A DNA stretch of 64,000 nt from Minisyncoccota bacterium. GTDB lineage: Bacteria; Patescibacteriota; Minisyncoccia; Phycocordibacterales; GWA1-40-21. The DNA is taken from contig JBAZRH010000001.1 in the NCBI GenBank assembly GCA_041663045.1, positions 276,403-340,402 on the forward strand, read 5' to 3'. The notes beneath the pieces are model-generated. The model had not been told where the DNA came from. It made no database searches and saw only the letters and a list, made by a program, of their open reading frames with translations. The translations under genes were made by a program, and so were the position numbers. The stretch's first letter is position 1; every line of letters begins with the position of its first letter. Of this stretch, positions 1,380 to 63,855 are shown one piece after another.

Positions 1380-1404
1380 TGCTACTGTGCCATCCGGTGA
1401 ACGA

Positions 1405-1572
1405 AAACTTGCCTAAAATTTTTGCTAGGGGTGGCAACCTGTTCTTTTTGAAAAGACTTGGGAGGAGTGGCTGACGACGGACAGAGAAAAACTTTAGCAA
1501 AAGTTTTTCGTGCTTTTCAAAAAGAATAGGTTGACAGGACCCCGAGAAAATTTTAGGCAAGTCCGAGTGAGC
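1405..1572. repeat. Long imperfect palindromic intergenic repeat, family C copy 3
   Basis: Outer arms ttgcctaaaattt / aaattttaggcaa and inner arms aacctgttctttttgaaaag / cttttcaaaaagaa. It is about 70% identical to the 25030-25207 element and ends in the motif gtccgagtgagc. Confidence 0.7.
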
Positions 1573-1574
1573 TT

Positions 1575-9947: not shown

Positions 9948-10070
9948 AAGCTCCCTCCCATCACTATTTTCCACCAGTGTGCCTTCATCCCGAAGAAAAT
10001 CATAATCGCTGTTCTATACGAAAAATCCCAGAGTCGCTCCCGCACCTCCCGCCCGTGAGGTTTTTCTGTT
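9948..10070. repeat. Intergenic repeat, family B copy 1
   Basis: Shares ccattttc(c/t)caccagtgtgccttca...gaaaatcat..tcgctgttctatacgaaaaatc with 42128-42320 and, inverted, 53500-53645. Confidence 0.75.
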
Positions 10071-10461: not shown

Positions 10462-10574
10462 TTTATGTGACCTCACGGGGAATCGGTCACGAGTATTTTT
10501 CTGCTGAAAAATCTCGCTACCCCGCCTCGCGCCGTCACGCTCCGGCTTTCGATTCCCCTGGACTTAAATAAAAA

Positions 10575-10606: not shown

Positions 10607-10609
10607 ATG

Positions 10610-10681: not shown

Positions 10682-10797
10682 AATATTAAATTGTTTAAAC
10701 TAAAATCTCGAACCCTGAATTTACCTTCTTACAGAAGCCGTATACCTATTCTGTTTTATATTTCGCTTCACTCATATAAAACCATCATAGGTCTTTC

Positions 10798-10950: not shown

Positions 10951-11009
10951 AAAAATCAGCGGGCATTTTGCGAAACAAAACGCCCGTCTCATATTTTTAT
11001 AACATAATA

Positions 11010-12305
11010 TTATCTTTTTTTCCACTCTTCCTCCTGCCTCACAAGTAGTTCTTCTGCTTTTTCTGGTTCTGCCATCACTTCCTCTACAGTTCGTTCCATA
11101 CGAGTTGATTGCGAGCCTTTTATAAGTATAATATCACCCTCCCTTAATATATCCTGCAAGGCTGTACCGGCTTCAACAGAATTGTCAAATTGAAAGACGT
11201 TTAATTCACCAAGACCATTGTCAAGAGCTCCTTCAGCAATCCTCCTCGATCTCACTCCAACAGTCATTAAAATATCTGAGGATTCTGCAACAAGCTTTCC
11301 TGCCTCATAATGTTCTTCTGTTGAGTGTTTACCAAGCTCCATCATATCTGCAAGAACGGCAATTTTTCTGGCTTTTGTCTTAATATCTTTTAGAGCTTTG
11401 AGAGCCGAGTGTAGTGCTACGGGTGATGAGTTGTAAGTATCATCTAAAATTGTCGTATTCTTTATTCCTAGTAATATCCTCATTCTACCCTTCGGCGATT
11501 CGTGTTTTAAAAGTCCTTCACCAGCTTTAACAAGATTCACATCTTGTGAAAGACCAACAGAGATAGCAGCCAAAGATGAATAAATACTCTGCATACCAAG
11601 TGAATATTTTATAATTATTGGTACAGAATTGTTTAAATATCCCACTTTGAAAATCATGCCATCTGGCGTTCTCGTCTTCTCTTCATAATGTATTTCGATA
11701 TTTGACGCTTTAATATCGGCATCACCCAAAAGACCGTACTTTAAAATCCTAGTATTTGCCCTCTGTGTCATTTTCATAGCGTCAACATCATCAGCGTTTG
11801 CAATTAACACCCCGTCATATTTCAGAGCATCTACTAAATACCATTTCTCCTTTATTATTTCATCTCTATTTTTAAAGAACTCAATATGAACAGGAATTTG
11901 TGCAAATCTTGTCAGAACTACTACATCTGGGCGAAGCCACTTCGATATGTTCTTAATATCTCCTGGCCTATCTGCACCAACTTCGAGTATAAGCCATTCT
12001 GGGTAACTCTGTCTCCAGATTATCAATCTTAAACCTTCCCAAATATTATTAAGCCATTTAAAAGGGTTGCTCCAAGCGTTCGGACACCCGAGTATCGTAA
12101 GTGGAATACCAATGTCACTATTAAAACTCTTTTCACTTTTTCTAACGTAAAATGATCCGGACATTACTGAAAAAATAGCGTCTTTTGTGGACGTTTTCCC
12201 AACACTCCCAGTAACCGCCACTACTTTAGGGTTGTATTTCTTCAGGACAAGTCTTGATTCAAATTGAATTATCTTCGTAATTATTTTCTTGAAAATTGAT
12301 TTCAT
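11010..12305 (-). CDS. murF: UDP-MurNAc-tripeptide--D-Ala-D-Ala ligase MurF
   Basis: Mur ligase P-loop AVTGSVGKTSTKD, middle and C-terminal Mur ligase domains, and dcw cluster context. Confidence 0.85.
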   Translation of the reverse strand: MKSIFKKIITKIIQFESRLVLKKYNPKVVAVTGSVGKTSTKDAIFSVMSGSFYVRKSEKSFNSDIGIPLTILGCPNAWSNPFKWLNNIWEGLRLIIWRQSYPEWLILEVGADRPGDIKNISKWLRPDVVVLTRFAQIPVHIEFFKNRDEIIKEKWYLVDALKYDGVLIANADDVDAMKMTQRANTRILKYGLLGDADIKASNIEIHYEEKTRTPDGMIFKVGYLNNSVPIIIKYSLGMQSIYSSLAAISVGLSQDVNLVKAGEGLLKHESPKGRMRILLGIKNTTILDDTYNSSPVALHSALKALKDIKTKARKIAVLADMMELGKHSTEEHYEAGKLVAESSDILMTVGVRSRRIAEGALDNGLGELNVFQFDNSVEAGTALQDILREGDIILIKGSQSTRMERTVEEVMAEPEKAEELLVRQEEEWKKR

Positions 12306-14424: not shown

Positions 14425-15311
14425 ACTATTTTTTCAATAACTCTAAGTTTTGCACTTCTCGATCTTGGATTTTCGTGTATCTCCCTTTCACTTGGAACAA
14501 TTGGTTTTTTGTTTATAAGTCTCCCTTCTCCTATTTTTGACTTATCTCTGAAAAAATTTTTAACTTCTCTGTCTTCAACGCTGTGAAAAGAAATTATCCC
14601 TATACGTCCGCCGTTATTTAACAGTGTCCATCCTTTTTGCATACCTTCTTTCAGAGCACTGATTTCATCATTTACTGCTATTCTCAAAGCCTGAAAAGTT
14701 TTTGTAGCAAAATGTATTTTTCCTCTCTTGTATGCTGCGGGTACTGCTCTTTTGATTATCTCTACAAGGTCAACTGTTGTCTTTATCGGCTTTTCTTTTC
14801 TTGCCTCGACAACTTCCCTCGCAATTCTTCTAGAATATCTTTCATCCGAGTAAGCGTAGATAATGTCCGCTATTGTCTCTTCGCTCCAGTTGTTTAGAAT
14901 TATCTCGGCGGTTACGCTTTCACCTTCTCCCTCAGAAAATGTCATAAGGAGGGGTTCGTTATTTCTTAAGGTAAAGCCCCTGCCGGATGCATCAAGTTGA
15001 TCGGATGATAGTCCAAGATCAAGGAGAATCGCATCTACCGAAGAGACACCGACAGAGCTTAAAACCGAATCAATCTTTCTGTAATCAGATAAGACAAGAT
15101 CAAACTTGCAGCCAATCTTTGAAAGACTTGCTTCTGCCCTTCTTATTGCCCCCATATCTCTATCCGTAGCGATAACGCGCACCTTTCCACCAAACTCTGA
15201 ACAAACTTTTGCACAGTGACCAGCTCCTCCAAGAGTACCGTCAAAAAACACGGCCCCTGGTTTAAGATTAAGATTTTCTATAGCTTCATTTAAAAGAACT
15301 GTCTTGTGCAT
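14421..15311 (-). CDS. rsmH: 16S rRNA (cytosine1402-N4)-methyltransferase RsmH (MraW)
   Basis: FFDGTLGGAGH SAM-binding start and full-length MraW homology. Follows mraZ. Confidence 0.9.
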   Translation of the reverse strand: MHKTVLLNEAIENLNLKPGAVFFDGTLGGAGHCAKVCSEFGGKVRVIATDRDMGAIRRAEASLSKIGCKFDLVLSDYRKIDSVLSSVGVSSVDAILLDLGLSSDQLDASGRGFTLRNNEPLLMTFSEGEGESVTAEIILNNWSEETIADIIYAYSDERYSRRIAREVVEARKEKPIKTTVDLVEIIKRAVPAAYKRGKIHFATKTFQALRIAVNDEISALKEGMQKGWTLLNNGGRIGIISFHSVEDREVKNFFRDKSKIGEGRLINKKPIVPSEREIHENPRSRSAKLRVIEKIV

Positions 15312-15750: not shown

Positions 15751-16021
15751 AAGAATTCTATTATTAGTTTAAGGAAGACTTAATAAAATCTCTCACTTTT
15801 TATTTTATCCCACTTCTTCCCACTTATGCTGTATTTTATAGCACTTAGTCCCACCAAGCAACACCTAGACTGTTGATAAGTTCAAATACAAAAATCCATC
15901 CTTATCTACCAATGGTGGATTTGACATATCGCAGAGATAGGACTAGTATAAAAAATGGAAAATACATGTATACACTCGTGTGGGTGCACTTGTATAGCGA
16001 TGTTGTTTGAAGGAGGTAAAG

Positions 16022-24929: not shown

Positions 24930-25029
24930 TAAACACGTTTGTAAGCGACCGAAGCCCCGCCATTTTCTCACCATTGCCGAAAGCTCCCTCCACCCACTTT
25001 CTCTACGATCTAGCGGACTCTGTAAGTTA

Positions 25030-25207
25030 GCGAGCGAGGATTTATAAATATCTTTGCTAGGGGTGGCGAGCCTGCCCCTTTTGAAATGCCTTGGGAGCGC
25101 GACGGCGCGAGCACGAGGAATTTTCTAGCAAGAAAATATCCGTGCATTTCAAAAGGGGCAGGTCGACAGGACCCCGTGAAAATATTTATCAAAACCCGAG
25201 CGAGTTT
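25030..25207. repeat. Long palindromic intergenic repeat, family C copy 1
   Basis: tttgctaggggtggcgagcctgcccctttt...aaaaggggcaggtcgacaggacccc with the central gcgcgacggcgcgagca. Flanked by agcgagcgagg and cccgagcgag. Confidence 0.75.
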
Positions 25208-26302
25208 TTAATGAATCAACTTCAAAATATCCTTATAAGTAATAAAAATCATCAGGCCGATAAGCAGTGCAAAACCGATTCCATTGGCCCAATTGGCTAT
25301 CGCCGGTTTTATTTTCCTTCTGAAGACTGCTTCTATGAAAACGAATAAAACTCTTCCACCATCAAGCGCCGGAAATGGCACTGCATTTAATACGGCCAAG
25401 TTTATAGAAATAAGAGCAATGAATCCGAGAAGATATGACGCGCCGAGATTCCTCGCCTGTCCCACCATTCCCGCTATTCCCACAGGACCTGAAATTTGCG
25501 ATATTAAACCTTTTTCACCTGTGAAAGCCCCGGCAATAAATTTCCACATACCGACAGCGACGACTTTTATTTCAAGGATGGTAAGTTTGACCCCCTCCCA
25601 AAAAGAGCTGAAAAATCCGAGCTTAAGAGTCCCCGCAAAATCCATTGCTATACCTATAGCCTTTTTACCTTCTGTTATCCCTGCAATCGGGACGATGTTC
25701 ACACTACTCGTAGATACACCTCTTTTTATCTCTAAATTCACAGCCGCTACACTTTCCGAAATAATTTTCTGAATTTGTTCTATCTTAGGGTTTGCCAGAT
25801 TCTGCTTATCTCCAGAAATATTTATAATAAAATCCCCTTCTTTGAGACCTGCTCTTTCTGCTGGAGATCTTTCGGCGACAGAGATTATAATCACACCTGC
25901 GTCTTTTATTTTACTTGCGTAACTATCACTCACAGAAGTAAGCATTCCAAGATTGAAAGAAATTGAAATCAAAATCCAAGCAAAGACAATATTTAAAAAT
26001 ATTCCTGATAGGAGGACTACAATTTGCTTCCATTTTGAAGCATTTACAAAGCTTCTGGCAGAATCGGCACCTTTCATAGATTCTTCGTTCGGATCCTCAC
26101 CAAATATCTTTACATAACCTCCGAAGGGGATAAGGTTCAAAGCGTATTTTGTCTCACCTCTCTGCCAGCCAAAGACTTTTGGCGGAAAGCCAATGGCGAA
26201 TTCATCTACTCGAATACCAAACATCTTCGCAGAGATAAAATGCCCAAGCTCGTGGACAAAGACGAGAACCGCAAGAATTATTAAAAAAAGTAATATGGTC
26301 AT
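25208..26302 (-). CDS. rseP: Site-2 protease RseP (M50 zinc metalloprotease with PDZ domain)
   Basis: HELGH zinc motif in TM1, a PDZ domain, and a C-terminal LDGG motif. Confidence 0.85.
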   Translation of the reverse strand: MTILLFLIILAVLVFVHELGHFISAKMFGIRVDEFAIGFPPKVFGWQRGETKYALNLIPFGGYVKIFGEDPNEESMKGADSARSFVNASKWKQIVVLLSGIFLNIVFAWILISISFNLGMLTSVSDSYASKIKDAGVIIISVAERSPAERAGLKEGDFIINISGDKQNLANPKIEQIQKIISESVAAVNLEIKRGVSTSSVNIVPIAGITEGKKAIGIAMDFAGTLKLGFFSSFWEGVKLTILEIKVVAVGMWKFIAGAFTGEKGLISQISGPVGIAGMVGQARNLGASYLLGFIALISINLAVLNAVPFPALDGGRVLFVFIEAVFRRKIKPAIANWANGIGFALLIGLMIFITYKDILKLIH

Positions 26303-26307
26303 GTTTT

Positions 26308-26486
26308 AAAAAGTTGAGGATTTGTAATTTGTTGTGTCCGCAGGCTCCTTTTCTGGTGCGATGTGGTGTAATTTTGCGAGAAGTAATCTTTGAGCAAAAG
26401 TATACCACATCGCAAGCCGCCGAGGATTAGGAAATTTTTCGGCTGGGAAAAATTTCTGCACAACAAATTGTAAATCCTCAACCTTG
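26308..26486. repeat. Long near-perfect palindromic repeat, family A copy 1
   Basis: aaagttgaggatttgtaatttgttgtgtccgcagg...ggtgcgatgtggtgtaattttgcgagaagtaatctttgagcaaaagtataccacatcgcaagcc...ctgcacaacaaattgtaaatcctcaacc. Confidence 0.8.
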
Positions 26487-28730: not shown

Positions 28731-28888
28731 ACAGCCGAAAGACGGCTTTAGAAAGCCATTTTTCGGCTAGGCGAGCGAGTCGGGTGCTTTTAAAAAGCAT
28801 TGCACAGCGCGACGGCGCGAGCATAGCAAAAAGCCAGCAGGCTTTTATGCGCGGTTTTTAAAAGCACCCGATGAGCGAGCCGTCTTGA
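28731..28888. repeat. Long palindromic intergenic repeat, family C copy 2
   Basis: cagccgaaagacggc...gagcgagccgtcttg outer arms, gggtgcttttaaaaagc / gcggtttttaaaagcaccc inner arms, and the same central gcgcgacggcgcgagca as 25030-25207. Confidence 0.75.
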
Positions 28889-30008: not shown

Positions 30009-31514
30009 ATGAAAAACAAGCTATCAGAAATCGGCAAGCTCATCACCGAGCTTCGTGAGAGACGCGGTATCACACAATCGGCTTTTGCTGAAAAGCTTGG
30101 CACAACACAAAGCGTAATCGCCCGCATAGAAAGCGGTGAGCAAAATCTAACCACAGAAATGCTTGAGAAAATCGGCGAAGCGCTAAATAAAGAAATCTTT
30201 ACAATATCGAAAGGTGCGATGAATCTTGAAATAGAAGGCGGACACAAACTCTCCGGCTCGGTGATTACAAAAACATCCAAAAACGGTGCGATGGGTATTA
30301 TCTCCGCTTCCCTACTAAACAAAGGTAAAACACTTTTAAAAAATGTGCCAAAAATTGAGGAAGTTTACAGAATGGTAGAAATCTTGGAAAGCATCGGTGT
30401 ATCTATCAGGTGGATTGGAGATGATCTGGAAATCGAGGTCAAGAAAATTGATCTCAAAAAGATAAATAAAGAATCCGCCGAGAAAACCAGAAGTATTATT
30501 ATGCTCATCGGCTCACTTTCACACTTTTTCAAGAAGTTTTCCCTACCACAATCCGGCGGATGCAAGCTCGGCTCGAGGACTGTCACCCCGCATTTTTTCG
30601 CCCTTGAGAATTTCGGTGTAAATATAGTCGCGAAATCAAAAAGTTATGAAATTTCGGCAAGTAAACTTAAGCCCGCAGAATTCGCCCTTTATGAAAGTGG
30701 AGATACCGTCACGGAAAACGCCATAATGACCGCCGCCCTTATCCCAGGGAAATCCGTCATCAAATTCGCCTCCGCCAATTATATGGTGCAAGATCTGTGC
30801 TTTTTCTTGGAAGGGCTTGGTGTAAAAATAGAAGGTATCGGTACGACCACCCTCACTGTGCATGGCGTATCGGAAATAAATAAAAATATTACATACTACC
30901 TCGCCGAAGATCCGATCGACTCAATGTTTTTCATAGCCACAGCAATACTCACAAATTCCTCTATAAAAATAGAACGCTGCCCGATAGATTTTCTTGAAAT
31001 AGAATTGCTAAAACTCAAAAAGATGGGCTTTAAATATAAATTATCAAAAGTCTATAAAGCACTGAACGGTAAGACGAATCTTGTAGACATCACCACTTCC
31101 CCTTCCCGACTCACAGCACTTACCGATAAAATAGAAGCGAGGCCCTTTCCTGGGCTCAATATCGACAACCTGCCTTTCTTCGCAGTCATCGCCACACAAG
31201 CCGTCGGGCAAACTCTCATACACGATTGGGTTTATGAAAAAAGAGCGATTCACTACAAGGAGCTAGACAAGCTCGGTGCCGATACTATTCTCGCCGACCC
31301 GCATAGATTTTATGTAAATGGAAAGACAGATTTGCGACCGACAGAAATAATCTGCCCGCCAGCTCTCCGCCCCGCCGCGATTATTTTGATAGGAATGCTT
31401 GGTGCAAAAGGCAGATCGATTTTGCGAAATGTTTACAGCATAAATCGCGGATATGAAGACATTGTGAAGAGGCTGAATGGTTTGGGAGCGAAGATAAAGA
31501 TGTTGAGGGATTAG
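30009..31514 (+). CDS. murA: XRE-family HTH domain fused to UDP-GlcNAc 1-carboxyvinyltransferase (MurA)
   Basis: The N-terminal 65 aa are an XRE HTH (LRERRGITQSAFAEKLGTTQSVIARIESGEQNLT). The remainder is MurA, with GGHKLSGSVITKTSKNGAMGII, catalytic Cys in GGCKLGSRTVTPH, and C-terminal INRGYEDIVKRLNGLGAKI. Confidence 0.8.
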   Translation: MKNKLSEIGKLITELRERRGITQSAFAEKLGTTQSVIARIESGEQNLTTEMLEKIGEALNKEIFTISKGAMNLEIEGGHKLSGSVITKTSKNGAMGIISASLLNKGKTLLKNVPKIEEVYRMVEILESIGVSIRWIGDDLEIEVKKIDLKKINKESAEKTRSIIMLIGSLSHFFKKFSLPQSGGCKLGSRTVTPHFFALENFGVNIVAKSKSYEISASKLKPAEFALYESGDTVTENAIMTAALIPGKSVIKFASANYMVQDLCFFLEGLGVKIEGIGTTTLTVHGVSEINKNITYYLAEDPIDSMFFIATAILTNSSIKIERCPIDFLEIELLKLKKMGFKYKLSKVYKALNGKTNLVDITTSPSRLTALTDKIEARPFPGLNIDNLPFFAVIATQAVGQTLIHDWVYEKRAIHYKELDKLGADTILADPHRFYVNGKTDLRPTEIICPPALRPAAIILIGMLGAKGRSILRNVYSINRGYEDIVKRLNGLGAKIKMLRD

Positions 31515-42127: not shown

Positions 42128-42320
42128 ACTCCCTCCGCCCCGCCATTTTCTCACCAGTGTGCCTTCACCCCAAAGAAAATCATAGTCGCTGTTCTATACG
42201 AAAAATCAAGAACTCGCCACATCAGAATGTGTCTCAAACAACTTGATTTTTCTAAACAGCTCTTTGATTTTACTTGGGGTTCTCGGCAATGGTGAGAAAA
42301 TGGCGGGGCTTCGGTCAACA
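42128..42320. repeat. Intergenic repeat, family B copy 2 (long palindromic form)
   Basis: ccgccccgccattttctcaccagtg...caatggtgagaaaatggcggggcttcgg arms. Its core matches 9948-10070 and, inverted, 53500-53645. Confidence 0.8.
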
Positions 42321-42336
42321 GTTGACTCCACAAAAA

Positions 42337-46815: not shown

Positions 46816-46848
46816 AAAGGGGCGCGCCTTACGGCGCGCCCCCTCCAT
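46816..46848 (-). terminator. Terminator following rnpB
   Basis: ggggcgcgcc-ttac-ggcgcgcccc. On the minus strand it is followed by TTTCTCATTATT. Confidence 0.6.
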
Positions 46849-47203
46849 AACCTTTATACCTATAAGCCGAATTCTGTCTCCTACTTTTTACAGTAAGTAG
46901 ACGGTCATCTATCTGGGCTACTGATTACTCAGTCGCTCAAGCGGCGCTCCAAGCATCAAATGGTGCTCGGCACGGCCTTGCACAGAGGTAAGGATTTTGT
47001 CGTTGCACTTCTGCGTCTCCGCAAAATTATTCCCGAAGGAATCCTAGCCTTTCGGCATCGGCGTCACTGTTCGCACCTCTTAGATTGCTCTAGACGGGCG
47101 TTACCCGCTACCCAAATCCATCCGCCCGAAGGCGTACGCTGTGTTCGGACTTTCCTCCAGCTATTTGCATAGCCAGCGACCATCCAATACAAAGGCAAAA
47201 TAA
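46848..47203 (-). ncRNA. rnpB: RNase P RNA (bacterial type)
   Basis: The reverse complement contains GGAGGAAAGTCCGAACAC (the P4 5' strand GGAAAGUCCG), GGGTAACGCCCG, AGATAGATGACCGTCTAC and the 3' region GACAGAATTCGGCTTATAGG (P4 3' strand ACAGAAnnCGGCUUA). A TTGCAT-N17-TATACT promoter sits upstream on the minus strand. Local GC is about 50%. Confidence 0.85.
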
Positions 47204-53149: not shown

Positions 53150-53312
53150 GAAAAAGCTCATTCACATCCCCGCTTTTCTGTGCAGAAATTTTCCCCAGCC
53201 GGAAAATTTCCTAATCCTCGGCGGCTTGCGCTGTGGTATACTTTTACTCGAAGATTACTTCTCGCAAAATTACACCACATCGCACCAGAAAAGGAGCCTA
53301 CGGACACAGAAA
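53150..53312. repeat. Family A repeat copy 3 (inverted orientation)
   Basis: Reverse complement of the 26308-26486 and 61520-61757 cores: ctgtgcagaaattttccccagccggaaaatttcctaatcctcggcggcttgcgctgtggtatactttt...ctcgcaaaattacaccacatcgcacc...ggacacag. Confidence 0.8.
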
Positions 53313-53499
53313 AATGGGGACGTTCATTCGCTTACAGCAGAAAAATACGGCTTTGTAAAGCCATACTTCATAAGCGAGCGAGATTCTCAATTTTCTAGCA
53401 TTGCCGAGAACCCGTGATAGAAGCAGTGTTCACTCTTATATTAGCTTCCTCGGCTCGGAAATGAAAAAGGAATTTTCATTTCTCTCGCTCTACGTCGCT

Positions 53500-53645
53500 A
53501 ATAAATCAAGGAGATGTTTAGAAAAATCAAGTTGTTTGAGACACATTCTGATGTGGCGAGTTCTTGATTTTTCGTTAAGAACATCGACTATGATTTGACT
53601 CTGGTGAAGGCACACTGCTAGAAAATTGAGAATCGAGCGAGCGTT
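53500..53645. repeat. Family B repeat copy 3 (inverted orientation)
   Basis: gagacacattctgatgtggcgagttcttgatttttcg is the reverse complement of the 42190-42230 segment. Ends with gaatcgagcgagcg. Confidence 0.8.
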
Positions 53646-56116
53646 TAAATCAAGGTTACCGACGCAATACTATCCCCTTCTCTTAATTTCATAACTCTCA
53701 CACCCTGCGTCTGCCTACCGAGCGAAGGAATTTCTTTGACCGCCACGCGTATGACCTGACTCTTTTTTGAAATAGTTGCGATTTCGTCTTCGCCGTCTGT
53801 GACGACTTTTGCGGAAATAATCTCCCCCGTTTTTGGTGTAACTTTCATGGTCTTGATACCAGACCCGCCTCTCTTTTGCACTTTATATTCTTTGAGTGGA
53901 GTTTTCTTTCCATAACCGTTTGAGCTCACCACGAGAAGCTCCGGATTCTGCATTGTTTTTGAAATAATGGCTGTACCGACGACAGTATCCCCTTTTCCAA
54001 GCTTTACACCACGGACACCAGAAGCATTCCTGCCCATAACGCGAATATCTTTATCTTTGAATCTGATAGATTGCCCTTTCGATGTGGCGATTATCGCCTC
54101 GTCGCCGTCATTCATAAAGAGCGCCGACTGAAGCTCATCTCCTGCATCTAGAGTGATGGCTATCAAGCCGTTTCTACGAACGTCTTTGAAGTTTTCTGCA
54201 TCCACCCTCTTTGCCGTACCGTTTTTCGTCACAAAGATAAGTGAGAGTTTCAAATTCTTCATCGCCTTTGGCATAGCAAGGACAGAAGTGATTTTCTCCT
54301 CACCAGAAATCGCCAAGTAGTTTACAATCGCCTTGCCTTTTGTCGCTCTCTTACCTTCTGGCAATTCATACATTTTTATTTGATACGCCTTTCCTTTGTC
54401 TGTGAAGAAGAGAATATCATTGTGTGTAGAAGCAGTAATAAAATGAGTAATAAAATCTTCATCTTTTGTATCAAGGTCCACCACTCCCACCCCACCCCTC
54501 TTCTGCTTTCTGTATTCGTCTGGGTTTGTCCTCTTTACATATCCGCCAGCAGTAAGGACGAGCATACTTTCTTCGTCTGCTATCAAATCTTCATCTGAAA
54601 GTGTCTGTACTCCGCCTTTTATAACTTTTGTCCTTCTCTCATCGCCGTATTTGGCTTTGATTTCAAGAAGCTCGGACTTAACTATTTCGAGAATTCTCTT
54701 TGTCTTTGCCAAAATATCTTTCAAATCTTTTATAAGGGCCTGCACGGCAGAAAGCTCATCTTCGATTTTCTTTCTCTCAAGTCCGGCGAGCTTCTGCAAA
54801 CGCATTTCAAGAATGGCATTGGCTTGGATTTCCGAAAACTTAAATACTTTCATGAGCTGTGCACGAGCGTCATCTACGTCTTTTGATTTCTTTATAAGTT
54901 TGATGATTTCGTCTATATGATCAAGCGCCTTTTTCAAACCAAGCAAAATATGCTCTCTCGCCTCGGCCTTTTTCAAATCAAATTCTGTCCTCCTTTTTAC
55001 GACAATCTTTCTATGATCTATGAATTCTTCCAGGAAAGAAAGGAGTGAAAGTGTCTTCGGTACGCCGTCTACAAGAGCGACAAGGTTGAAGTGAAATGTC
55101 TCCTCGAGCTGTGTATGTTTATACAAATAATTCAAAACGCTTTGTGGCTGAGCGCCATTTTTGAGGTCAACGACAATACGGATGTCTTTTGCAGACTCAT
55201 CACGCAAACCCCTTATACCTTCTATTTTCTTTTCACGGACAAGCTCGGCGATAGCGATGATAAGCTCGGCTTTGTTGACCCTATAAGGTATCGAGGTGAT
55301 TATTATCTGAAATTGACCTTTTTTGTCTTCTACTATTTCGGCATGACCTCTCGTCACCACCCCTCCTCTACCTGTGGAATATGCGTGGTTGATATCTGTT
55401 TGATTGTAAATCATCCCGCCTGTCGGAAAATCTGGCCCTTTTATAAATTTCAAAAGGTCTTCAGTGGTAGCATCTTCATTGTCTGCCAAGTGAATAGTTG
55501 CATCGATCACCTCTCCAAGGTTGTGCGGGGGGATATTCGTCGCCATACCGACAGCAATACCGAGAGTTCCGTTTAACAAAAGGTTCGGCACACCGGCTGG
55601 AAGGACGGTTGGTTCTTTTTTGGTATTGTCATAGTTGGGCTTCCAATCAACGGTTTCTTTTTCCAAATCTTTCAGCATTTCACCGGCGATTTTTGACATC
55701 TTCGCCTCGGTGTATCTCATAGCGGCGGCTGAATCGCCGTCTATGTTTCCAAAGTTTCCCTGACCGATAATATGCGGATATCTAAGTGAGAAATCCTGTG
55801 CCATTTTGACCATAGAATCATAGACAGCAACATCGCCGTGCGGGTGATAATTTCCAAGTACTTCTCCGACCACAGCGGAAGATTTCCTTGTCCTTGCACC
55901 TGCGGTAAGGTTCATTTGGCCCATGGCATAAAGGATTCTTCTATGCACTGGTTTCAAACCATCGCGGACATCGGGAAGGGCGCGGTCTGTGATGACAGAC
56001 ATGGCATAGTCGATAAATGACTCTTTCATTTCGGTCGTAATGCTTCTGTCGGAAAGAGCTCTATGCTCTATTTTTACAGCTTCCTCTCCATTTCCTTCTG
56101 ATTTGTTTTTCGCCAT
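53645..56116 (-). CDS. gyrA: DNA gyrase subunit A
   Basis: [14 protein letters not shown], the active-site Tyr region, and C-terminal beta-pinwheel repeats. Confidence 0.9.
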
Positions 56117-56118
56117 GA

Positions 56119-56346
56119 CTATTTATTAAAAATTTCTACAAAATTATCTTTCAATTCTTTCATCTGTCCTGAATCAAATATTGATTTTCTAATTTCTGGA
56201 CTATCAACAATGTTAATCAAATTATTTAAGACAAGTGCAAATATTACCACAATCAAAGTGATAACGACAGCGCTTGTAAAGGCAAAAACTCTCTTTTTTC
56301 TTTCTGGCATTTTCTCTATCTTTGAAAGAAAAGACATAATTTTCAC
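56119..56346 (-). CDS. Small single-TM protein
   Basis: 75 aa with one TM helix, immediately upstream of gyrA. Confidence 0.4.
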
Positions 56347-56985
56347 TTACAAATTTGCAGAAAGAACCACCACCTCGCCCTGTTTGCCATCCAAATCCTT
56401 CTTCTTGATTGTCAGCTTGTCTATCGGTTTTACATTTTCTTCACCCGCTGCTTTCAGATATTTCTTCAAACCATCTTTTTGTCCGACATCCCCATAATGC
56501 ATCGGTATGATTATCTTCGGCTCGATTTCCACAGAAAGCTTTTCTGCTTTCACTGCATCAAGTACACCGTCGTCGCCCACGGGCAAGAAGAGAATATCGA
56601 CATCACCAAGTGCTTCTTTGACTTCGCTTGAAAGATTGATATCGGAAAGCGTGCCAAGGAAACAAAGATTCATATTTTCAAGAGTGACGGAATAAATAGT
56701 GTTGATGCGTTCTTTGCCGGCATAAGAAGATTTCGAACCAAAACCTTTTATGAAAATTTCTTTGACTTCGTATTCGCCCGGACCGGAAATGACAAAAGGG
56801 TCCTTGCCATTGTAAGAGAGGTTTTCTGTGCCATTCATATCCGGGTGATTGACGCTCACAAGTGCAATATCAGCAAAAAAACGTGTCGGCTTAAACTTTG
56901 ATTCTTTTGAAATCGGATTAAAAGCGAGGGTTGTGTCGCCAAACTGAACTTTAAAAAATTCCACCCCTTGATAAGTGATAATCAT
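56347..56985 (-). CDS. MBL-fold metallo-hydrolase-like protein (degenerate His motif)
   Basis: UPF0173-like beta-lactamase fold. LVSVNHPDMNG replaces the canonical HxHxDH. Confidence 0.55.
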   Translation of the reverse strand: MIITYQGVEFFKVQFGDTTLAFNPISKESKFKPTRFFADIALVSVNHPDMNGTENLSYNGKDPFVISGPGEYEVKEIFIKGFGSKSSYAGKERINTIYSVTLENMNLCFLGTLSDINLSSEVKEALGDVDILFLPVGDDGVLDAVKAEKLSVEIEPKIIIPMHYGDVGQKDGLKKYLKAAGEENVKPIDKLTIKKKDLDGKQGEVVVLSANL

Positions 56986-57019
56986 GGGTTAATTATAGCA
57001 AATTCCGACCGATTCGGCA

Positions 57020-57255
57020 ATACAAAAAAAGCTCCCTCGCATTTCCTTTTTGGTGCACACGTCAAATTTCCCTGCGAGGAATTTGCGCTCCCTCTCGGCC
57101 TCTCTCGTCCGCCTGATTACAGGCGAACGCCATGCCCGCTCGGCCTGCGAGAGTCACCAAAAAAGAAAACGCTCGGTCGCTAACATAAAAAAATCCCAAC
57201 AAAAAACCACACGAGTGGAGGAAACTTTTCCTCTCAACTCGCGTGGTATCACTCG
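57020..57255 (-). ncRNA. Candidate GC-rich structured small RNA or 3'-UTR element between two intrinsic terminators
   Basis: On the minus strand, a hairpin ccacacgagtggagg...cctctcaactcgcgtgg plus TTTTTTG comes first. A roughly 170 nt GC-rich segment follows, with the stems ctctcgcaggccgag/ctcggcctctctcg and cgcctgattacaggcg. It ends with cctcgca...tgcgagg plus TTTTTTT. Confidence 0.3.
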
Positions 57256-57274
57256 CCAACCCTGACTCACCCAC

Positions 57275-57706
57275 TTACTTGAGCAGAATCGCTGTGCAGA
57301 CGAAGTGTTCGCCTTCACTGCCATCGATTTCAACCGAATCCGTGAGGGTTTCGACGGCTTTCGTCTGCTTTTTGTCATCATCACTCATCTGGTCGAATAC
57401 TTCCCCAATGTCTGGCTTGAGGAAGAAGCGAGAAGACGATTTGACAAGAAAACGAATTCGTTTGAACTCCTTTAAACCATCGACGAGTTCGTCGGGCTTG
57501 AAGTCGAACGTGTGCGATATACCCCGAGGGTTCTTGCGGATTTTTTCCATCGTATCTTTGTCTGCCGTATAGTAGCCCACAACACTTCCTTTCCCTTTGT
57601 GGGTTTCAGACACGATGAGAATTCTGCTAAGTAACTCGCGAATCTCATCAGATGACGTCCTTTTGTAGTTGCTGTACAGAACTTTCGTATCTATTTTATT
57701 TCCCAT
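57275..57706 (-). CDS. Hypothetical protein (143 aa), higher GC
   Basis: ORF with a downstream terminator. No motif recognised. Confidence 0.5.
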   Translation of the reverse strand: MGNKIDTKVLYSNYKRTSSDEIRELLSRILIVSETHKGKGSVVGYYTADKDTMEKIRKNPRGISHTFDFKPDELVDGLKEFKRIRFLVKSSSRFFLKPDIGEVFDQMSDDDKKQTKAVETLTDSVEIDGSEGEHFVCTAILLK

Positions 57707-58059
57707 GATTATTCTCCTTCTTCTTGATTTTATTACTGGTATTTACCAGTGTGGACTTCCGTTTGAGATGTTAGCATAGTTTAAACTTTTTGTCAAGCAT
57801 TTACTTTCCCATATCTTCGTGTATTATTCTTTCTGTTAATAGCAGTCGTGCAAAGAGATAACCTCGATCATCGGAAAATTCAAGATTACGGAAGATGAAC
57901 GAAACTTTTTGAGCGAACAATTTATTTGTCCGCTAGTGAGCGGATTTTCTTGTCCCGAGTGAAAATCAACGGATTAGAAGAAAAAATAAAATAACCGATT
58001 GAAAATTAAATAGAATTTAAAACAGGTCTCTATTTTTAAATTTTCTTTTCGGGATTATT

Positions 58060-59181
58060 ATGGCAAAAGAAATAAAGAAAGTTGCGATTGCAGATGTAGA
58101 GATTTCTGCCGAAGCAAAAGCAAAGAAAGATAGTTTGATGGGTAAGCTTTTCAATGATGTCAAAAATCCTCCATCGGAAGGAGAAGTCGTGGAAGGTAAA
58201 GTTATCGGAGTTGAAAAGTCTAGAGTTTATGTTGACCTACAACCATTTGGTTCAGGTCTTATTTATGGTAAGGAATTCATCACCGCAAGAGATGTTATCA
58301 AGAAGCTTAATATCGGCGACATCGTCTCCGCAAAAATAGTAGACGTAAATGGAAGAGACGGTTATATAGAGCTTTCTTTGAAAGAAGCTCGCCAGGCCCT
58401 TATCTGGGATGAAGCCGAAAAAGCTATCAAGAGCAAAATCGTATTTGAAATTCCGGTCAAGGAAGCCAACAAAGGCGGACTTATGCTTGAATGGCAAGGT
58501 ATTACAGGATTCTTACCAGCATCACAGCTCAAAGCCGAACACTATCCAAAAATAGTAGACGGGGACAAAGACAAAATTCTTGATGAATTGAAAAAACTCG
58601 TCGGGCAGAAGATTTCTGTCGCGATAATTACTGCCACTCCAAAAGAAGGCAAACTTATTTTCTCCGAGAAAAACATTGAAAAGAAAGAAAAGCAGAAAAT
58701 GGCCGACAAATACAAAGTCGGAGATATTCTGGATGGAGAGATTACCGGCACGGTAGACTTCGGTGTCTTCGTGAAGCTTGAAGATGGTCTAGAAGGACTT
58801 GTGCATATTTCAGAAATCGACTGGGCGCTTGTAGATGATCCAAGAGCAATGTTTAAACAGGGAGATAAAGTCAAAGTAAAAGTTATAGATGTGAAAGACG
58901 GAAAAGTTTCGCTTTCTATCAAAGCTTTGAAGACAAACCCTTGGGTTGAGGCGGAGAAGAAATATAAAAAGGGCGATATGGTGGAAGCTGTTGTCATCAA
59001 ATTCAACAAATATGGCGCACTTGCAAGTATTGAAGAGGGTGTCGCTGGACTTGTGCATATTTCAGATTTCGGTTCAGAAAATAAAATGAAAGAAAAGATT
59101 AGCTTGGGTAAAAACTACACGTTCAAGATAAATCTCTTTGAAGCAAAGGGACAGAAGATGGGGTTGAGTTTTGTTAAATAA
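58060..59181 (+). CDS. rpsA: 30S ribosomal protein S1 (four S1 domains)
   Basis: Repeated S1 OB-fold signatures (GxV.G.V..I...G.FV). Confidence 0.85.
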   Translation: MAKEIKKVAIADVEISAEAKAKKDSLMGKLFNDVKNPPSEGEVVEGKVIGVEKSRVYVDLQPFGSGLIYGKEFITARDVIKKLNIGDIVSAKIVDVNGRDGYIELSLKEARQALIWDEAEKAIKSKIVFEIPVKEANKGGLMLEWQGITGFLPASQLKAEHYPKIVDGDKDKILDELKKLVGQKISVAIITATPKEGKLIFSEKNIEKKEKQKMADKYKVGDILDGEITGTVDFGVFVKLEDGLEGLVHISEIDWALVDDPRAMFKQGDKVKVKVIDVKDGKVSLSIKALKTNPWVEAEKKYKKGDMVEAVVIKFNKYGALASIEEGVAGLVHISDFGSENKMKEKISLGKNYTFKINLFEAKGQKMGLSFVK

Positions 59182-59307
59182 AAGCTCGCTCGGATATCCA
59201 ATTTTGAGACCCGCATTCCGCCATGGGCGGATGATCCCTCTCCCGCCGTCGCGGTCCGTAACTCTCAAAATTAAATATCCTCGCTCGTTTACTTGCAGAC
59301 AAATTCA

Positions 59308-59340
59308 CAGAGGGGGTTCGCTTTGCGAACCCCCTCTTTG
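59308..59340 (+). terminator. Rho-independent terminator after rpsA
   Basis: cagagggggttcg-cttt-gcgaaccccctcttt. Confidence 0.75.
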
Positions 59341-59379
59341 GATTACGGAGGTCGAACCTCCGTAAAACATTTTCTGCAT

Positions 59380-59414
59380 AAAAAAGCGGCGCTGAGCATA
59401 CAGCGCCGCTTACC
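59380..59414 (-). terminator. Terminator for the minus-strand gene at 59430-60143
   Basis: On the minus strand, ggtaagcggcgctgtatgctcagcgccgc is followed by TTTTTTAT. Confidence 0.75.
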
Positions 59415-59429
59415 AAAATCAAGATAGCT

Positions 59430-60143
59430 TCAAGTTTGGATTTCCTTGGCCAAGAAACGCCACGTCTTACAGTGATTCTCTTTCATCCAAAGCTCCGATA
59501 TATTGTCAGAACAATGAATTGTGCGTTTGTTAACACAGAATCCGACTTGACCTATAGGGGTGGTCCCGTCCTGTTCAGTGCTTACTTCCTCTCTCTTGAA
59601 ACTAAGTGCCGCCCTATCCCACTCACCAGTTTCTGGATTAGCAGTAAGTGCTTTGATAGACATTCTATCCACCAATTCTGGGTATCTTCTGATAAATCCC
59701 AATACTTCGACGGGAGTTAGGAATGCTAGATTATTCTCATCGATATATAGGACTACATCCCCGTAAGACATAACCTGATCTTCTGGTGGAAAAATCTTGT
59801 AGACAACCTCTTCGATAACACAGTCGTCACTAGGACTATCCCCCTTAAGTTCCCCTAAGAGCTTATTCTGATTTATGCCAGGATGCACAAAGCCACGTAC
59901 TTTTTTCAATTCTCCGACAAGGAAGTCGGGTGTATCGCAGTGATTTATATCCACTATGTATACACCATCTCCGAATGGATTCGGATCACCTCGTAGGAAA
60001 CGTTTGAAAGCGTTCCCCCAGAAGCGAGCATTTTTGTTACCACTCAACCTTTCGAGAAGGTCAATGATCACACCGAAAAAGTTTTCCGGTAGACCACCAA
60101 GCATCTCAACTATCTTACCGAGCATGTCAGATTTTTTAGACAT
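59430..60143 (-). CDS. Hypothetical protein (237 aa), higher GC
   Basis: Long ORF with its own terminator. No motif recognised. Confidence 0.5.
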   Translation of the reverse strand: MSKKSDMLGKIVEMLGGLPENFFGVIIDLLERLSGNKNARFWGNAFKRFLRGDPNPFGDGVYIVDINHCDTPDFLVGELKKVRGFVHPGINQNKLLGELKGDSPSDDCVIEEVVYKIFPPEDQVMSYGDVVLYIDENNLAFLTPVEVLGFIRRYPELVDRMSIKALTANPETGEWDRAALSFKREEVSTEQDGTTPIGQVGFCVNKRTIHCSDNISELWMKENHCKTWRFLAKEIQT

Positions 60144-60254
60144 GGTCAGCTCCTTTTCTTTTTTACAGAACTTACCGAGTAATCAGCCCTTCTCCGCACA
60201 CGCGAATCAGAGATGATTTCCTTTGTATTTCTATCACTTTGTATACAAAAGTCA

Positions 60255-60297
60255 AATGGGCGGGGTTTGCCTTCGGCAAACCCCGCCCATTTTGTAT
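60255..60297. terminator. Bidirectional terminator
   Basis: aaatgggcggggtttgccttcggcaaaccccgcccatttt. Confidence 0.8.
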
Positions 60298-60301
60298 TTC
60301 A

Positions 60302-60898
60302 CTAGAAACTATTCACAAACCCCGTCGCTATCTCCCTCCCATCTTTCACAAGAATCTCCAAACCTTCGGCGGCTTTTTTCGCGAGCTTTTTAAATGTGAT
60401 CTGTTCGGCTGGTTTAAACTTTCCAAGAATCAAGTCCACTACAGCTTTTTCGCCTTGCGGTTTCTTTATTTTCCCACTTCCAGTTGCTGGTGAAATCCCA
60501 ACTCTCAATCTGATAAACGCTTCGGTCTTTATGGCTTTTACTATTGATACTACTCCCCTATGCCCTCCGGCACTTTTATTAAATGACATTTTTATTTTAC
60601 CAAAAGGAATATCGAGATCGTCGTGTATTACCACAAGTGTCTCTGCAGACTTTTTGCTTTTTATAATAGGTCCGACAGCATTTCCGCTTTTGTTCATAAA
60701 AGTATTCGGCTTTATAAGCATGACGGTATTTTTTCCAACCTTTTCTTTTGCAACGAGAGAATTTAATTTCTTATCCTCTTTCCATTCTTCGACTCCGACA
60801 AGCTTGGCAAAAGCATCGATGACCATAGCCCCTGTATTATGCCTTGTCCATTCATATTCTTGTCCAGGATTCCCAAGACCAACGATTGTGTAATTCAT
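60302..60898 (-). CDS. pth: Peptidyl-tRNA hydrolase
   Basis: VGLGNPGQEY...HNTG signature N-terminus, full length. Confidence 0.9.
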   Translation of the reverse strand: MNYTIVGLGNPGQEYEWTRHNTGAMVIDAFAKLVGVEEWKEDKKLNSLVAKEKVGKNTVMLIKPNTFMNKSGNAVGPIIKSKKSAETLVVIHDDLDIPFGKIKMSFNKSAGGHRGVVSIVKAIKTEAFIRLRVGISPATGSGKIKKPQGEKAVVDLILGKFKPAEQITFKKLAKKAAEGLEILVKDGREIATGFVNSF

Positions 60899-61145
60899 AC
60901 TAATAGTGTAATGCTAAAGACTGAAAAAGTAAAATACTAAAAATTAGTCCGAAAATATAGCTAAAGATAGACTTACTTTGTCGCCCCCAAACTGCTTGAC
61001 AATAAGGACAGATGGGTGTATACTACTAAACAGGAGTATTGGGGTGTAAATGGCTTGTCGCTGTTCATCTTTGATACAAATGATATTTGAAAACGGGTAT
61101 CGCTACCCTTTGGCTAAAAAGCCGTTAGTGAATTTGGAGGAAAAA

Positions 61146-61448
61146 ATGGATAAGATGCTCAAAATGATGTTATTTTTTGTACTTGGGTCCGTCCTGAGTT
61201 TCTGGGGTTTTCATATCGTCTTTGAAGAAAGTATGCACTACGCTTTTTTCGAGACTATAGTCATAGGGATGTTTATACTTGCAAATGACAGTATAACAAA
61301 AAAGGCAACGGTGGATAGAGAGTCTTCGCGTGCATTATACTACTCATTGTGGTTGGTCTTTATAACTACCATGGTTCCATTACGGATAGGGGTCTATTGC
61401 GGTATTATTGACAATGCAAGTGCTTTCGTCTTTAAGATCGTGCCGTGA
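61146..61448 (+). CDS. Small membrane protein
   Basis: GGAGG RBS 6 nt before the ATG at 61146. Three TM helices. A terminator follows. Confidence 0.5.
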   Translation: MDKMLKMMLFFVLGSVLSFWGFHIVFEESMHYAFFETIVIGMFILANDSITKKATVDRESSRALYYSLWLVFITTMVPLRIGVYCGIIDNASAFVFKIVP

Positions 61449-61460
61449 GTAAATCGGTTT

Positions 61461-61498
61461 GTCGCCACCCCGCTTTTATAGGGGGTGGCGATTTTTTT
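61461..61498 (+). terminator. Rho-independent terminator
   Basis: tcgccaccccgcttttatagggggtggcga followed by TTTTTTTAT. Confidence 0.8.
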
Positions 61499-61519
61499 AT
61501 TTCCATTTTCTACTCCCTA

Positions 61520-61757
61520 TTCGTAAGCGAGCGAGACTTGTGATTTTTGAGCATTACATGCTTTAATCTATTTCATGAGCGAGCGAGTATTCCGATTTTG
61601 TTGTGTCCGCAGGCGAGCTTGCATGGTGCGATGTGGTGTAATTTTGCGAGAAGTAATCTTCGAGCAAAAGTATACCACATCGCAAGCCGCCGAGGATTAG
61701 GAAATTTTTCGGCTGGGGAAAATTTCTGCACAACAAAATTGGGATACGAGCGAGCTA
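61520..61757. repeat. Family A repeat copy 2
   Basis: About 95% identical to the 26320-26475 core. Flanked by three CGAGCGAG motifs (61523, 61577, 61746). Confidence 0.8.
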
Positions 61758-63582: not shown

Positions 63583-63855
63583 AAGCTCGCTCATATCACT
63601 ATTTTCCTGTGCAGAAATTTTCCCCAGCCGAAAAATTTCCTAACTCCTTACAGGAGCAGTACACCTTTCACATTTTGAGTACAAAACGTTCAAGGTCTTT
63701 TATTTGGGTCCCTTACCCAAATCTCAACTCGGCGGCTTGCGCTGTGGTATACTTTTGCTCGTGAATACACTTCGCAAAATTACACCACATCGCACCGCAC
63801 AAGCTCGCCTGCGGACACAGGAAAATAGTAATATTCGCTCGCTTATCGCTTGCAT
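63583..63855. repeat. Family A repeat copy 4 (inverted) interrupted by a roughly 90 bp insertion
   Basis: The arms match 53150-53312. The insertion (about 63645-63735) contains tttgggtcccttacccaaat, shared with the pseudo-tRNA region at 10798-10820. Confidence 0.75.

Follow-up and report, generated by a model that had tools for sequence, protein, structure and literature searches.

Folded repeats set flush with stop codons in a Minisyncoccota genome: a candidate REP/REPIN-like family

A 64,000-nucleotide (nt) stretch of DNA from a Minisyncoccota bacterium (GenBank assembly GCA_041663045.1, contig JBAZRH010000001.1, positions 276,403 to 340,402), in the following called the window, was analyzed for a repeat that recurs at the 3' ends of genes. 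At least 13 copies or fragments (numbered E1 to E12) were found; the elements are 100-270 nt long, and the family occupies about 3% of the window. Three of its features are unusual: the two ends of an element pair with each other through two conserved tandem G·A pairs, the conserved core forms a three-way junction, and the copies are placed next to stop codons with single-nucleotide precision and in a fixed orientation. Judged from sequence, the elements are best filed as a new repeat family, specific to a Paceibacterota clade, of the kind formed by repetitive extragenic palindromes (REP), REPINs and miniature inverted-repeat transposable elements (MITEs). We give a probability of roughly 0.5 to the reading that they are REP/REPIN-like, non-autonomous repeats recognized as a folded single strand, some copies of which probably terminate transcription in the opposite direction.

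Each element is bounded by the octamer CGAGCGAG. The strand carrying it is called the GA strand and its complement the CT strand. The window contains 11 CGAGCGAG on either strand, as compared to a mean of 0.90 and a maximum of three in dinucleotide-preserving shuffles. Ten of them are element termini; the eleventh, at 29194 within an mreB-like open reading frame (ORF), is probably due to chance. Exact octamers start at 25031/25197, 53375/53634 and 61580/61747 on the plus strand and at 59185/59280 on the minus strand, and further ones at 28772 (with the partner TGAGCGAG at 28872) and 61528. The original prediction, made from the letters of the window, had described a fixed terminal octamer, and these counts bear it out. 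The positions it listed are superseded by the exact starts given above; there is no octamer at 61598, and the one placed at 53383 starts at 53375. The copies had also been described as bounded by the octamer or its complement; instead, both octamers of each element lie on the same strand and are direct repeats. Likewise, more than a stub is present behind rpsA, namely a full element of 103 nt at 59185-59287 with 16 of 16 arm positions paired. This copy, E7 (59182..59291, minus strand), is a complete basic element that immediately follows the stop codon of rpsA (59179-59181). The order on its GA strand, here the minus strand, is TAAA-CGAGCGAG, 18-nt arm, H1/H2 core, second arm and CGAGCGAG-CTT. 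E7 scored 98 bits with a covariance model, and its minimum free energy as RNA was -50.7 for the GA strand versus -40.0 for the CT strand. A structure-based scan for an octamer with at most two mismatches, complementary 16-nt arms and a second octamer recovered the elements and gave no match in 20 shuffled windows.

The basic element comprises about 105 nt and has the following order on the GA strand: GT(A/T)AG–CGAGCGAG–N7-8 ATTTT N5-6–J–H1–H2–J–N5-6 AAAAT N7-8–CGAGCGAG–CTT. Its outer stem consists of three layers, which are AAG/CTT pairs at its base, the paired CGAGCGAG octamers, and a hypervariable but complementary arm of 14-18 bp with the ATTTT/AAAAT motifs. H1 has a GC stem of 4 bp and a GWCG loop, and further G·A/A·G mismatches flank it; H2 is a variable stem with an invariant AGCA loop. 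The alignment comprised nine basic copies, taken from five genomes and two metagenome contigs. The RNAalifold consensus was a three-way junction with 36 pairs, 30 of which showed compensatory double changes. The proportion of paired cells was 91%, as compared to 66% with shuffled 3' partners and 44-46% with partners slid by one column, and none of 500 shuffles matched the observed pairing on any measure.

When two CGAGCGAG octamers are aligned antiparallel, they form the series C-G, G·A, A·G, G-C, C-G, G·A, A·G, G-C. This series has the Y-GA-R context of sheared tandem G·A pairs. Among 22 copies, octamer positions 2, 3, 6 and 7 were G·A/A·G in 19-22. Position 4 was occupied by G-C (11 copies), A-T (five), C-G (two) or G-T (two), and position 8 by G-C (11), A-T (five) or G-T (two). 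Co-variation is seen at the Watson-Crick positions, and the G·A positions hardly vary at all. One G·A tandem is changed to G-C/A-T in copy L002b (L-numbers denote loci of relatives or metagenome contigs; the relatives' loci comprise about 0.5 Mb in total). The octamer pairs CGAACGAA/TGAGTGAG (L005, L029), CGAATGAA/TGAATGAG (E9) and CGACCGAG/CGAGGGAG (E10) are fully paired yet non-identical; therefore, the octamers are not a target-site duplication. As a naturally occurring case, the family illustrates how conserved tandem sheared G·A pairs with co-varying neighbors hold a helix together.

These observations bear on a classical cut-and-paste MITE, which would have double-stranded terminal inverted repeats, a DDE transposase and a TA/TAA target-site duplication. 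Size, copy number, intergenic location, hairpin potential and nested insertions of the family all fit, and a TA or TAA-like sequence is found near both ends. However, the terminal octamers are direct and not inverted repeats; the arms, which differ by about 50% where cores are 95-98% identical, vary strongly and in a compensatory manner, unlike a conserved sequence for protein binding; there is no consistent flanking duplication of 1-9 nt; and the strand asymmetry described below is unexpected for a double-stranded substrate. This explanation is largely refuted and appears very improbable. Target-site-duplication models with A, TA, TAA/TTA or the octamer itself were also tried, and none of them fits all copies.

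The two strands of an element differ in their pairing, since a G·T wobble on the GA strand corresponds to an A·C mismatch on its complement. Read on the GA strand, the arms contain 18 G·T wobbles versus six A·C mismatches (p = 0.02) and the octamers 12 versus three, which amounts to 30 versus nine for both. Four pairs of RNA folds gave -50.7/-40.0, -50.7/-40.0, -54.8/-48.1 and -61.9/-52.4 kcal/mol for the GA and CT strand, respectively. The advantage of the GA strand was 7-11 kcal/mol when folded as RNA and 1-5 kcal/mol as DNA. The wobble bias together with the fold energies therefore indicates selection for pairing on the GA strand; the selected fold is that of the GA strand, whether as RNA or as single-stranded DNA. 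The element is a strand-asymmetric hairpin, the two transcripts of which lie about 10 kcal/mol apart.

A better-folding and selected GA strand also speaks for a host RNA device, that is, a gene-facing intrinsic terminator or insulator on this strand, comparable to a mobile terminator module like SPRITE. Such a device would stop transcription running towards the 3' end of the abutted gene from a convergent neighbor or from spurious antisense promoters; where the GA strand is co-directional with an upstream gene, the same device would end that gene. Its T-rich tail would be the complement of ...AAA-TAA-AAG. The 9 nt following the GA hairpin are on average about 60% T, with CTTTTATTT at E1, E2, E7, L002a and L005c. 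At least five T within these 9 nt were found in about two-thirds of the copies, and none has a T-tract on the strand of the abutted gene. E1 and E5 are the only hairpin downstream of a convergent gene, E9 and E10 occupy classical terminator positions with T-runs, E10 being followed by a promoter-like site, and the same gene ends are occupied in several species. On the other hand, E4, E6 and E8 are located between co-directional genes without obvious GA-strand transcription, and about one-third of the copies have poor T-tracts, for example CGTTCACTT, TCTCTAAGG and CCGTCTTGA; hence, termination is not the general rule. Furthermore, a terminator does not require a fixed 3-nt spacing, a stem loop of 60-230 nt is atypical for intrinsic terminators, and the ancestral canonical terminator has been kept next to E7. 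We consider a terminator device unlikely as an explanation of the family. The original prediction had suggested modular 3'-untranslated region (UTR) or terminator elements; this can stand only with reversed polarity, as the mRNA of the abutted gene contains the weaker C·U hairpin and no U-tract.

Placement relative to stop codons was determined by searching for ORFs of at least 60 codons on the opposite strand which end near the 3' foot of the GA strand. For 25 copies from at least seven genomes, the distance between the end of the stop codon and the start of the octamer was tabulated. This distance was exactly 3 nt in 17 of the 25 copies, 1 nt in two, 5-6 nt in one (E4) and 14 nt in one (E12); four copies (E9, E10, E11a, E11b) had no nearby stop codon. 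Thus, a stop codon is located at most 6 nt away in 20 of 25 copies. The three spacer nucleotides, usually AAG, pair with the CTT at the other end of the element. The spacer therefore belongs to the stem, and the element proper begins directly after the stop codon. The abutted stop codon was TAA in 17 copies, TAG in two (L005b, L012) and TGA in one (L002b). Orientation is fixed: the abutted gene lies on the strand opposite the GA strand, and the 3' foot faces its stop codon. A covariance model (R1), built from the alignment trimmed to exclude the stop codon, identified three more octamer-bearing copies (L012, L005c, L011d), which were all flush with the stop codons of ORFs of 407, 94 and 252 codons, respectively. 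Within the window, six of 13 ends lie at one exact distance (p ~3e-12) and eight of 13 within 0-6 nt (p ~1e-10), with random placement in the 9.1 kb of non-coding window DNA as the binomial null model. To our knowledge, this is the sharpest stop-codon adjacency of any bacterial repeat.

The original prediction had already noticed this adjacency, and it holds at yqeY (9947), rel (42127), the hisS-like gene (63582) and rpsA (59181). It was additionally found at mltG-like (1575), rseP-like (25208), frr (26488) and gyrA (53645). The spacing had been given as 0-5 nt, which is in fact a sharp mode at 3 nt; TAA prevails, with TAG and TGA accepted as well; and most rather than nearly all copies are involved, as E9, E10 and E11a/b in the window abut no stop codon. 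The placement pattern is real and sharper than first described. A site-specific insertion mechanism had been one of two proposals, and the precision of placement agrees with it; the octamer, however, is neither a transposase-type terminal inverted repeat nor a target duplication. Altogether, the earlier observation was partly confirmed and its interpretation partly supported. Orthologous GyrA, HisS-like and RpsA proteins have the same terminal residue with or without an element; hence, the element does not remodel the abutted gene. Because placement is so precise, and because the insertions at rpsA, gyrA and the hisS-like gene are new (see below), tolerance alone is insufficient and site-specific integration or position-dependent retention is needed. 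Two further ideas were tried and rejected. A co-variation of guide and target was not found, since the 5' head does not track the type of stop codon and only the ordinary stem extension co-varies. A peptide made by stop-codon read-through was dismissed, as frame 0 shows no preference for being open and the peptides lack conservation.

Exact spacing with all three stop codons would also be expected from a 3'-UTR element acting on translation termination, which would tune termination, ribosome stalling or rescue, or the stability of the mRNA 3' end. In the mRNA, the weak first 11 nt (AAG and the C·U octamer) would lie in the footprint of the terminating ribosome, with the strong stem beginning at about +12. 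Every flush copy is necessarily transcribed in the orientation of the gene, and protein C-termini are untouched. A precedent exists in E. coli REPs located closer than 16 nt to the stop codon, which affect translation by stalling ribosomes and lowering its level, as far as Liang et al. (2015) is cited in PMC12306157. However, wobble statistics and energies put selection on the opposite strand, four copies lie away from stop codons, orthologues in sister species have no element, and the in-frame read-through ORF is neither open nor conserved. An element of this kind is improbable, even more so than a terminator.

Relatives of the window lineage were inspected for the presence of elements at the same genes. 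In about ten of them no element follows rpsA, only an ordinary terminator. This terminator is homologous to the one kept in the window at 59320-59350, and E7 lies between the stop codon and the terminator. Similarly, L002, L006 and L029 have no element behind gyrA or the hisS-like gene, and the C-termini of the proteins are identical. These sequence comparisons show the elements at rpsA, gyrA and the hisS-like gene to be gains in the window lineage. In contrast, rpsU, ftsZ, ybeY and a gene of 404-412 amino acids (aa) bear elements in two or three species, which suggests that these gene ends were occupied long ago or are hot spots.

Copies have also been duplicated and rearranged. The cores of the four type A elements in the window are 95-98% identical, whereas their shells (octamer plus 14-nt arm) differ at about half of the positions; despite this divergence, each shell is internally complementary. 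L011a and L011c, which belong to two different genes, differ in one octamer only. Between species, core segments share 88-93% identity, as compared to 67-85% for the RpsA proteins. Nesting was observed in E3b and E1, each of which holds a complete inner element within an outer shell, and part of an 82-nt insertion in E8 recurs inside a tRNA-like pseudogene. L005 and L029 are 93-96% identical, yet the element after rpsU is completely different: L005 contains a full element (15758-15914) and L029 a short perfect hairpin, GAGCGAAGC ... GCTTCGCTC (14924-15018). The latter is built from the octamer sequences themselves and thus is not an empty site from which the boundaries could be read; the difference indicates fast internal rearrangement of the element. 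Solo ends and half elements were found in E2, E3a and E11a. Gain, copying, nesting, rearrangement and solo ends together characterize a duplicative, recombining and decaying repeat family. Its shells are site-resident and its cores exchangeable, that is, swapped, nested or enlarged. The expectation that orthologous shells are more alike than non-orthologous ones was not borne out.

According to the REP/REPIN-like reading, a trans-acting enzyme would copy or convert the elements by recognizing the folded single strand, and the conserved mismatches would serve as identity marks for this enzyme. A parallel may exist to RAYT/TnpA_REP and the IS200/IS605 HUH enzymes, which act on single-stranded DNA. 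The GT(A/T)AG head 5' of the GA stem and the CT just 3' of it would mimic the GTAG head and the CT cleavage site of REPs. The head was GTAAG in seven and GTTAG in three of 20 copies and RT(A/T)AG in 14 of 20; it resembles GTAG without being identical to it. A copy in place would form the 3'-UTR in transcripts of the abutted gene, where it would take the weaker C·U form. Read in the GA direction, it could act as a hairpin plus T-tract terminator, as is conceivable at E1, E5, E9 and E10. The flush position would result from specificity of integration or conversion in combination with retention.

Several points weigh against this reading. Neither a RAYT or IS200-like enzyme nor any other transposase was detected by regular expression and Pfam searches of the window and the relatives' loci, which represent a small part of each genome. 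A regular expression for the HUH/Y1 motif matched nothing in any ORF of the window or these loci. For the abutted gene, the GA strand serves as template and hence is not the strand exposed when this gene is transcribed. A short DNA target alone fails to explain why stop codons are occupied rather than other TAAA sequences, as stop codons make up 15 of 181 viable TAAA sites. No clean pair of an empty and a filled allele was found that would define the exact ends and the target. Finally, recurrent occupancy of gene ends and conservation of cores could mean long-term purifying selection and a host function.

The last point leads to a coupling with the end of translation or transcription of the host gene, to which we assign a low probability, similar to that of the terminator device. 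It could take the form of a single-strand element defined by the stop codon, or of an asymmetric hairpin device specific to the Candidate Phyla Radiation (CPR) which insulates gene 3' ends. Such a device may fold strongly on the antisense strand and, by design, only weakly on the mRNA, where it would lie under the terminating ribosome. The recurrent occupancy of rpsU, ftsZ and ybeY and the conservation of cores across species are compatible with this coupling. CPR/Patescibacteria genomes are among the most streamlined known. If the idea is true, gene 3' ends would be insulated by this device in genomes with minimal regulatory machinery. In any case, the repeats touch the 3' ends of core genes, which are rpsA, gyrA, frr, rel, rseP-like, mltG-like and hisS-like in the window and rpsU, ftsZ and ybeY in relatives.

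The distribution of the family was examined in relatives and metagenomes. Relatives identified by the window RpsA (76-86% identity) are metagenome-assembled genomes labeled Candidatus Paceibacterota, Patescibacteria or 'Saccharibacteria', with contigs or chromosomes of 0.6-0.73 Mb. Most of them have no octamer in the 20 kb surrounding rpsA. The family is present in L002, L005/L029, L011 and L012 and in the metagenome contigs L127 and L133, with a truncated copy in L056. The 606-kb contig CAWDSG010000002.1 carries the family, and OY970290.1 seems to be devoid of it. Core relatives without octamers were found in L004, L010, L014, L027 and at window position 10467-10566. A metagenome scan with TAAGCGAGCGAG-N7-9-ATTTT returned almost exclusively chance matches, L127, L133 and L056 being the only real members among the matches listed. 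Scans of viral contigs with three patterns gave no family member. A comparison with Rfam yielded no match at gathering score and only noise at E-values up to 10, and literature searches for the octamer and for reports of MITEs or REPs in CPR bacteria gave no description of the family. The family appears to be confined to a Paceibacterota clade. Strain-level empty sites were sought by exact look-ups of RpsA, Frr and YqeY, which returned either short contigs identical to the window from the same sample (SRR18595301) or nothing. Two Logan contigs of this sample, L001 (= window 54356-61552) and L037, match the window exactly, and at least L001 terminates within a repeat element; hence, the family fragments short-read assemblies. 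The elements thus break such assemblies and also create spurious ORF calls. Other short repeats occur around the rpsA terminator of L004, L010, L014 and L029 (~11070-11330), where the GA-octamer family is not found. In such relatives, motifs of the AAGTTGAAAGTTAAAAGT type flank the terminator hairpin on both sides, and in L029 the stop codon of rpsA is immediately followed by a separate hairpin of about 90 nt.

The remaining copies in the window are as follows. The octamers of E1 (1395..1574, plus strand), TGAACGAA / CGAGTGAG, are degenerate but still pair. This copy directly abuts the stop codon of the mltG-like gene (1575-2570, minus strand) and lies 18 nt downstream of a convergent exonuclease-like gene; its nested inner copy at 1425-1543 scored 50.9 bits with the covariance model. 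E2 (9948..10060, minus) is partial, retaining only the 3' half with a type C core, and is flush with the yqeY stop codon. E3a (24940..25007, plus) consists of fragments: TAAGCGACCGAA with its arm represents a solo 5' end of a type C element, and behind it AAGCTCCCTCC with its arm is a solo end facing the other way. E3b (25027..25207, plus) has two layers, an outer CGAGCGAG shell around a complete inner element at 25061-25170 (77.6 bits), and is flush with the rseP-like stop codon (25208-25210). E4 (26307..26485, plus) contains a type A core in a shell with the fully Watson-Crick-paired GTTGAGGA / TCCTCAAC in place of the octamers; this copy lies 5-6 nt past the frr stop codon and takes up the intergenic region between frr and rseP. 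E12 (28768..28882, plus) is a basic element, CGAGCGAG ... TGAGCGAG, located 14 nt from the mreB-like stop codon. It scored 100 bits with the covariance model and folds with -61.9 (GA) versus -52.4 kcal/mol. E5 (42128..42321, minus) has a type C core and the octamers TGACCGAA / GGAGGGAG with compensated CC/GG; it is located 1 nt past the rel stop codon and 19 nt past a convergent parB-like stop codon.

Near gyrA two copies are found. E9 (53154..53334, minus) has a type A core and octamers with A-T for G-C on both sides; it lies away from stop codons, and its GA strand is co-directional with gyrA and followed by CTTTTTCTCC. E6 (53371..53644, plus) has a type C core within a consensus shell and is flush with the gyrA stop codon (53645-53647). 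E10 (57029..57183, minus; 58 bits) has compensated octamers and lies away from stop codons. Its GA strand is co-directional with the upstream gene, which encodes 143 aa; CTTTTTTTG comes next, and behind it a site resembling a promoter of the following gene, so that E10 occupies a terminator position. E11a (61524-61590, plus), of which only the 5' half is present, and E11b (61576-61757, plus), with a type A core and consensus octamers, both lie away from stop codons, downstream of a canonical terminator and upstream of an lepB-like start. E8 (63583..63845, minus) contains a type A core with the extra 82-nt insertion and the octamers CGAGCGAA / TGAGCGAG; it lies upstream of the S21 gene and directly abuts the stop codon of the hisS-like gene. 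A core-only relative without octamers at 10467..10566 (minus; covariance model 28.8 bits, E=1e-4) contains the H1 (GACG loop) and H2 (AGCA loop) core of the family in a different outer stem.

Some neighboring sequences deserve mention. An ORF of 237 aa without Pfam match (59430-60143, minus) lies between rpsA and pth, next to E7. It is a lineage-specific insertion, because pth directly follows rpsA in several relatives (L004, L006, L009, L029). The 143-aa ORF beside E10 (57275-57706) is also an orphan. A tRNA-like pseudogene (10690-10958, minus) was found beside tRNA-Glu(CUC) (10609-10681). It closely resembles this tRNA-Glu in its acceptor/D-arm and anticodon-arm segments, with UUCGAGA as anticodon loop. 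The D-loop is broken by a block of about 90 nt with the H1/H2 core of the repeat family (10847-10903), the anticodon stem is broken by a 36-nt hairpin, and the 3' half of the T-arm is missing. Neither ARAGORN nor Rfam called this pseudogene. The 36-nt hairpin module, AGGTCTTTcATTTGGGTCCCTTgCCCAAATtTCAAC, is present at 10789-10824 and 63693-63728 with 92% identity, one copy inside the pseudogene and the other inside the extra insertion of E8. From its sequence, the module looks like a second, smaller mobile hairpin.

Additionally, three other genes of the window were noted. The leucyl-tRNA synthetase encoded at 5065-7935 (minus; 956 aa) contains a NUDIX domain (PF00293, E=7e-16, residues 393-513) after the editing domain, which is an unusual domain combination. 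A protein of the MurA/EPSP-synthase fold with an N-terminal helix-turn-helix (HTH) DNA-binding domain (HTH_3, XRE-type) is encoded at 30009-31514 (plus). A bias of the elements with respect to the replicating strand was rejected as an idea, as this MurA-like gene at 30009 is not DnaA and the window has no placeable origin. Bacterial RNase P RNA class A was found at 46847-47195 (minus) with 113.9 bits, little more than the Rfam gathering score of 100 bits, which suggests a divergent or reduced RNA.

Among known systems, integron attC sites follow the stop codons of ORFs in fixed orientation and are folded single strands with conserved structure, variable sequence and conserved unpaired positions. 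The family shares the stop-adjacent location, the fixed orientation, the folded single strand and the conserved unpaired positions. It might therefore be asked whether the elements are attC-like sites at gene 3' ends, serving as folded single-strand substrates of an integron-type or Xer-type tyrosine recombinase. Copies lie immediately after stop codons, the strand of the recombinogenic type is antisense to the ORF, and the variable stem ends in a terminal structure that is itself variable and can branch. However, the flanking genes are housekeeping genes in conserved synteny and not cassettes, R''/R' (RYYYAAC / GTTRRRY) or L boxes are missing, the ends reading (stop)AAG-CTCGCTCG ... CTCGCTCG-CTTA, and no integrase is encoded in the window. 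We regard an attC-like origin as highly improbable.

SPRITE is a known terminator-like repeat (PMC3184786). The family resembles it in its length of about 105 nt, the appearance of a hairpin with T-tract and the location at gene 3' ends; it differs by a T-tail which faces the abutted gene from the opposite strand, by its structured core and by the exact spacing to the stop codon. Correia/NEMIS, RUP, ERIC and Nezha MITEs are likewise non-autonomous, intergenic, long stem-loops of 100-300 nt which are co-transcribed with their neighbors (PMC3184786). Those elements have terminal inverted repeats matching an insertion sequence (IS) and target-site duplications, whereas the family has neither.

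REP, BIME and REPIN sequences (RAYT) come closest. TnpA_REP reads single-stranded DNA in a strand-specific manner and needs the conserved mismatches of the REP stem, the GTAG head and the CT cleavage site (PMC8266576). Many E. coli REPs are located 1-20 nt from stop codons (PMC12306157). The family differs from REPs in being 3-8 times longer (100-270 versus 20-40 nt), with a two-hairpin core and exchangeable or nested cores; its mismatches are two tandem G·A/A·G pairs; the host belongs to the CPR, and no RAYT gene was found in the window and the relatives' loci. Like REPs, the elements are extragenic imperfect palindromes in many copies, with conserved stem mismatches, a strand-specific folded single strand and a CT beside the foot; the short 5' heads (GTAG in REP, GT(A/T)AG here) are similar without being identical. 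Both form mosaic clusters in both orientations, as seen here for E9/E6 and E11a/b, and both have many copies near stop codons. The spread of 1-20 nt in REPs is replaced in the family by a flush mode of a single nucleotide position. This precise adjacency turns the loosely documented tendency of REP-like elements towards stop codons into a testable rule.

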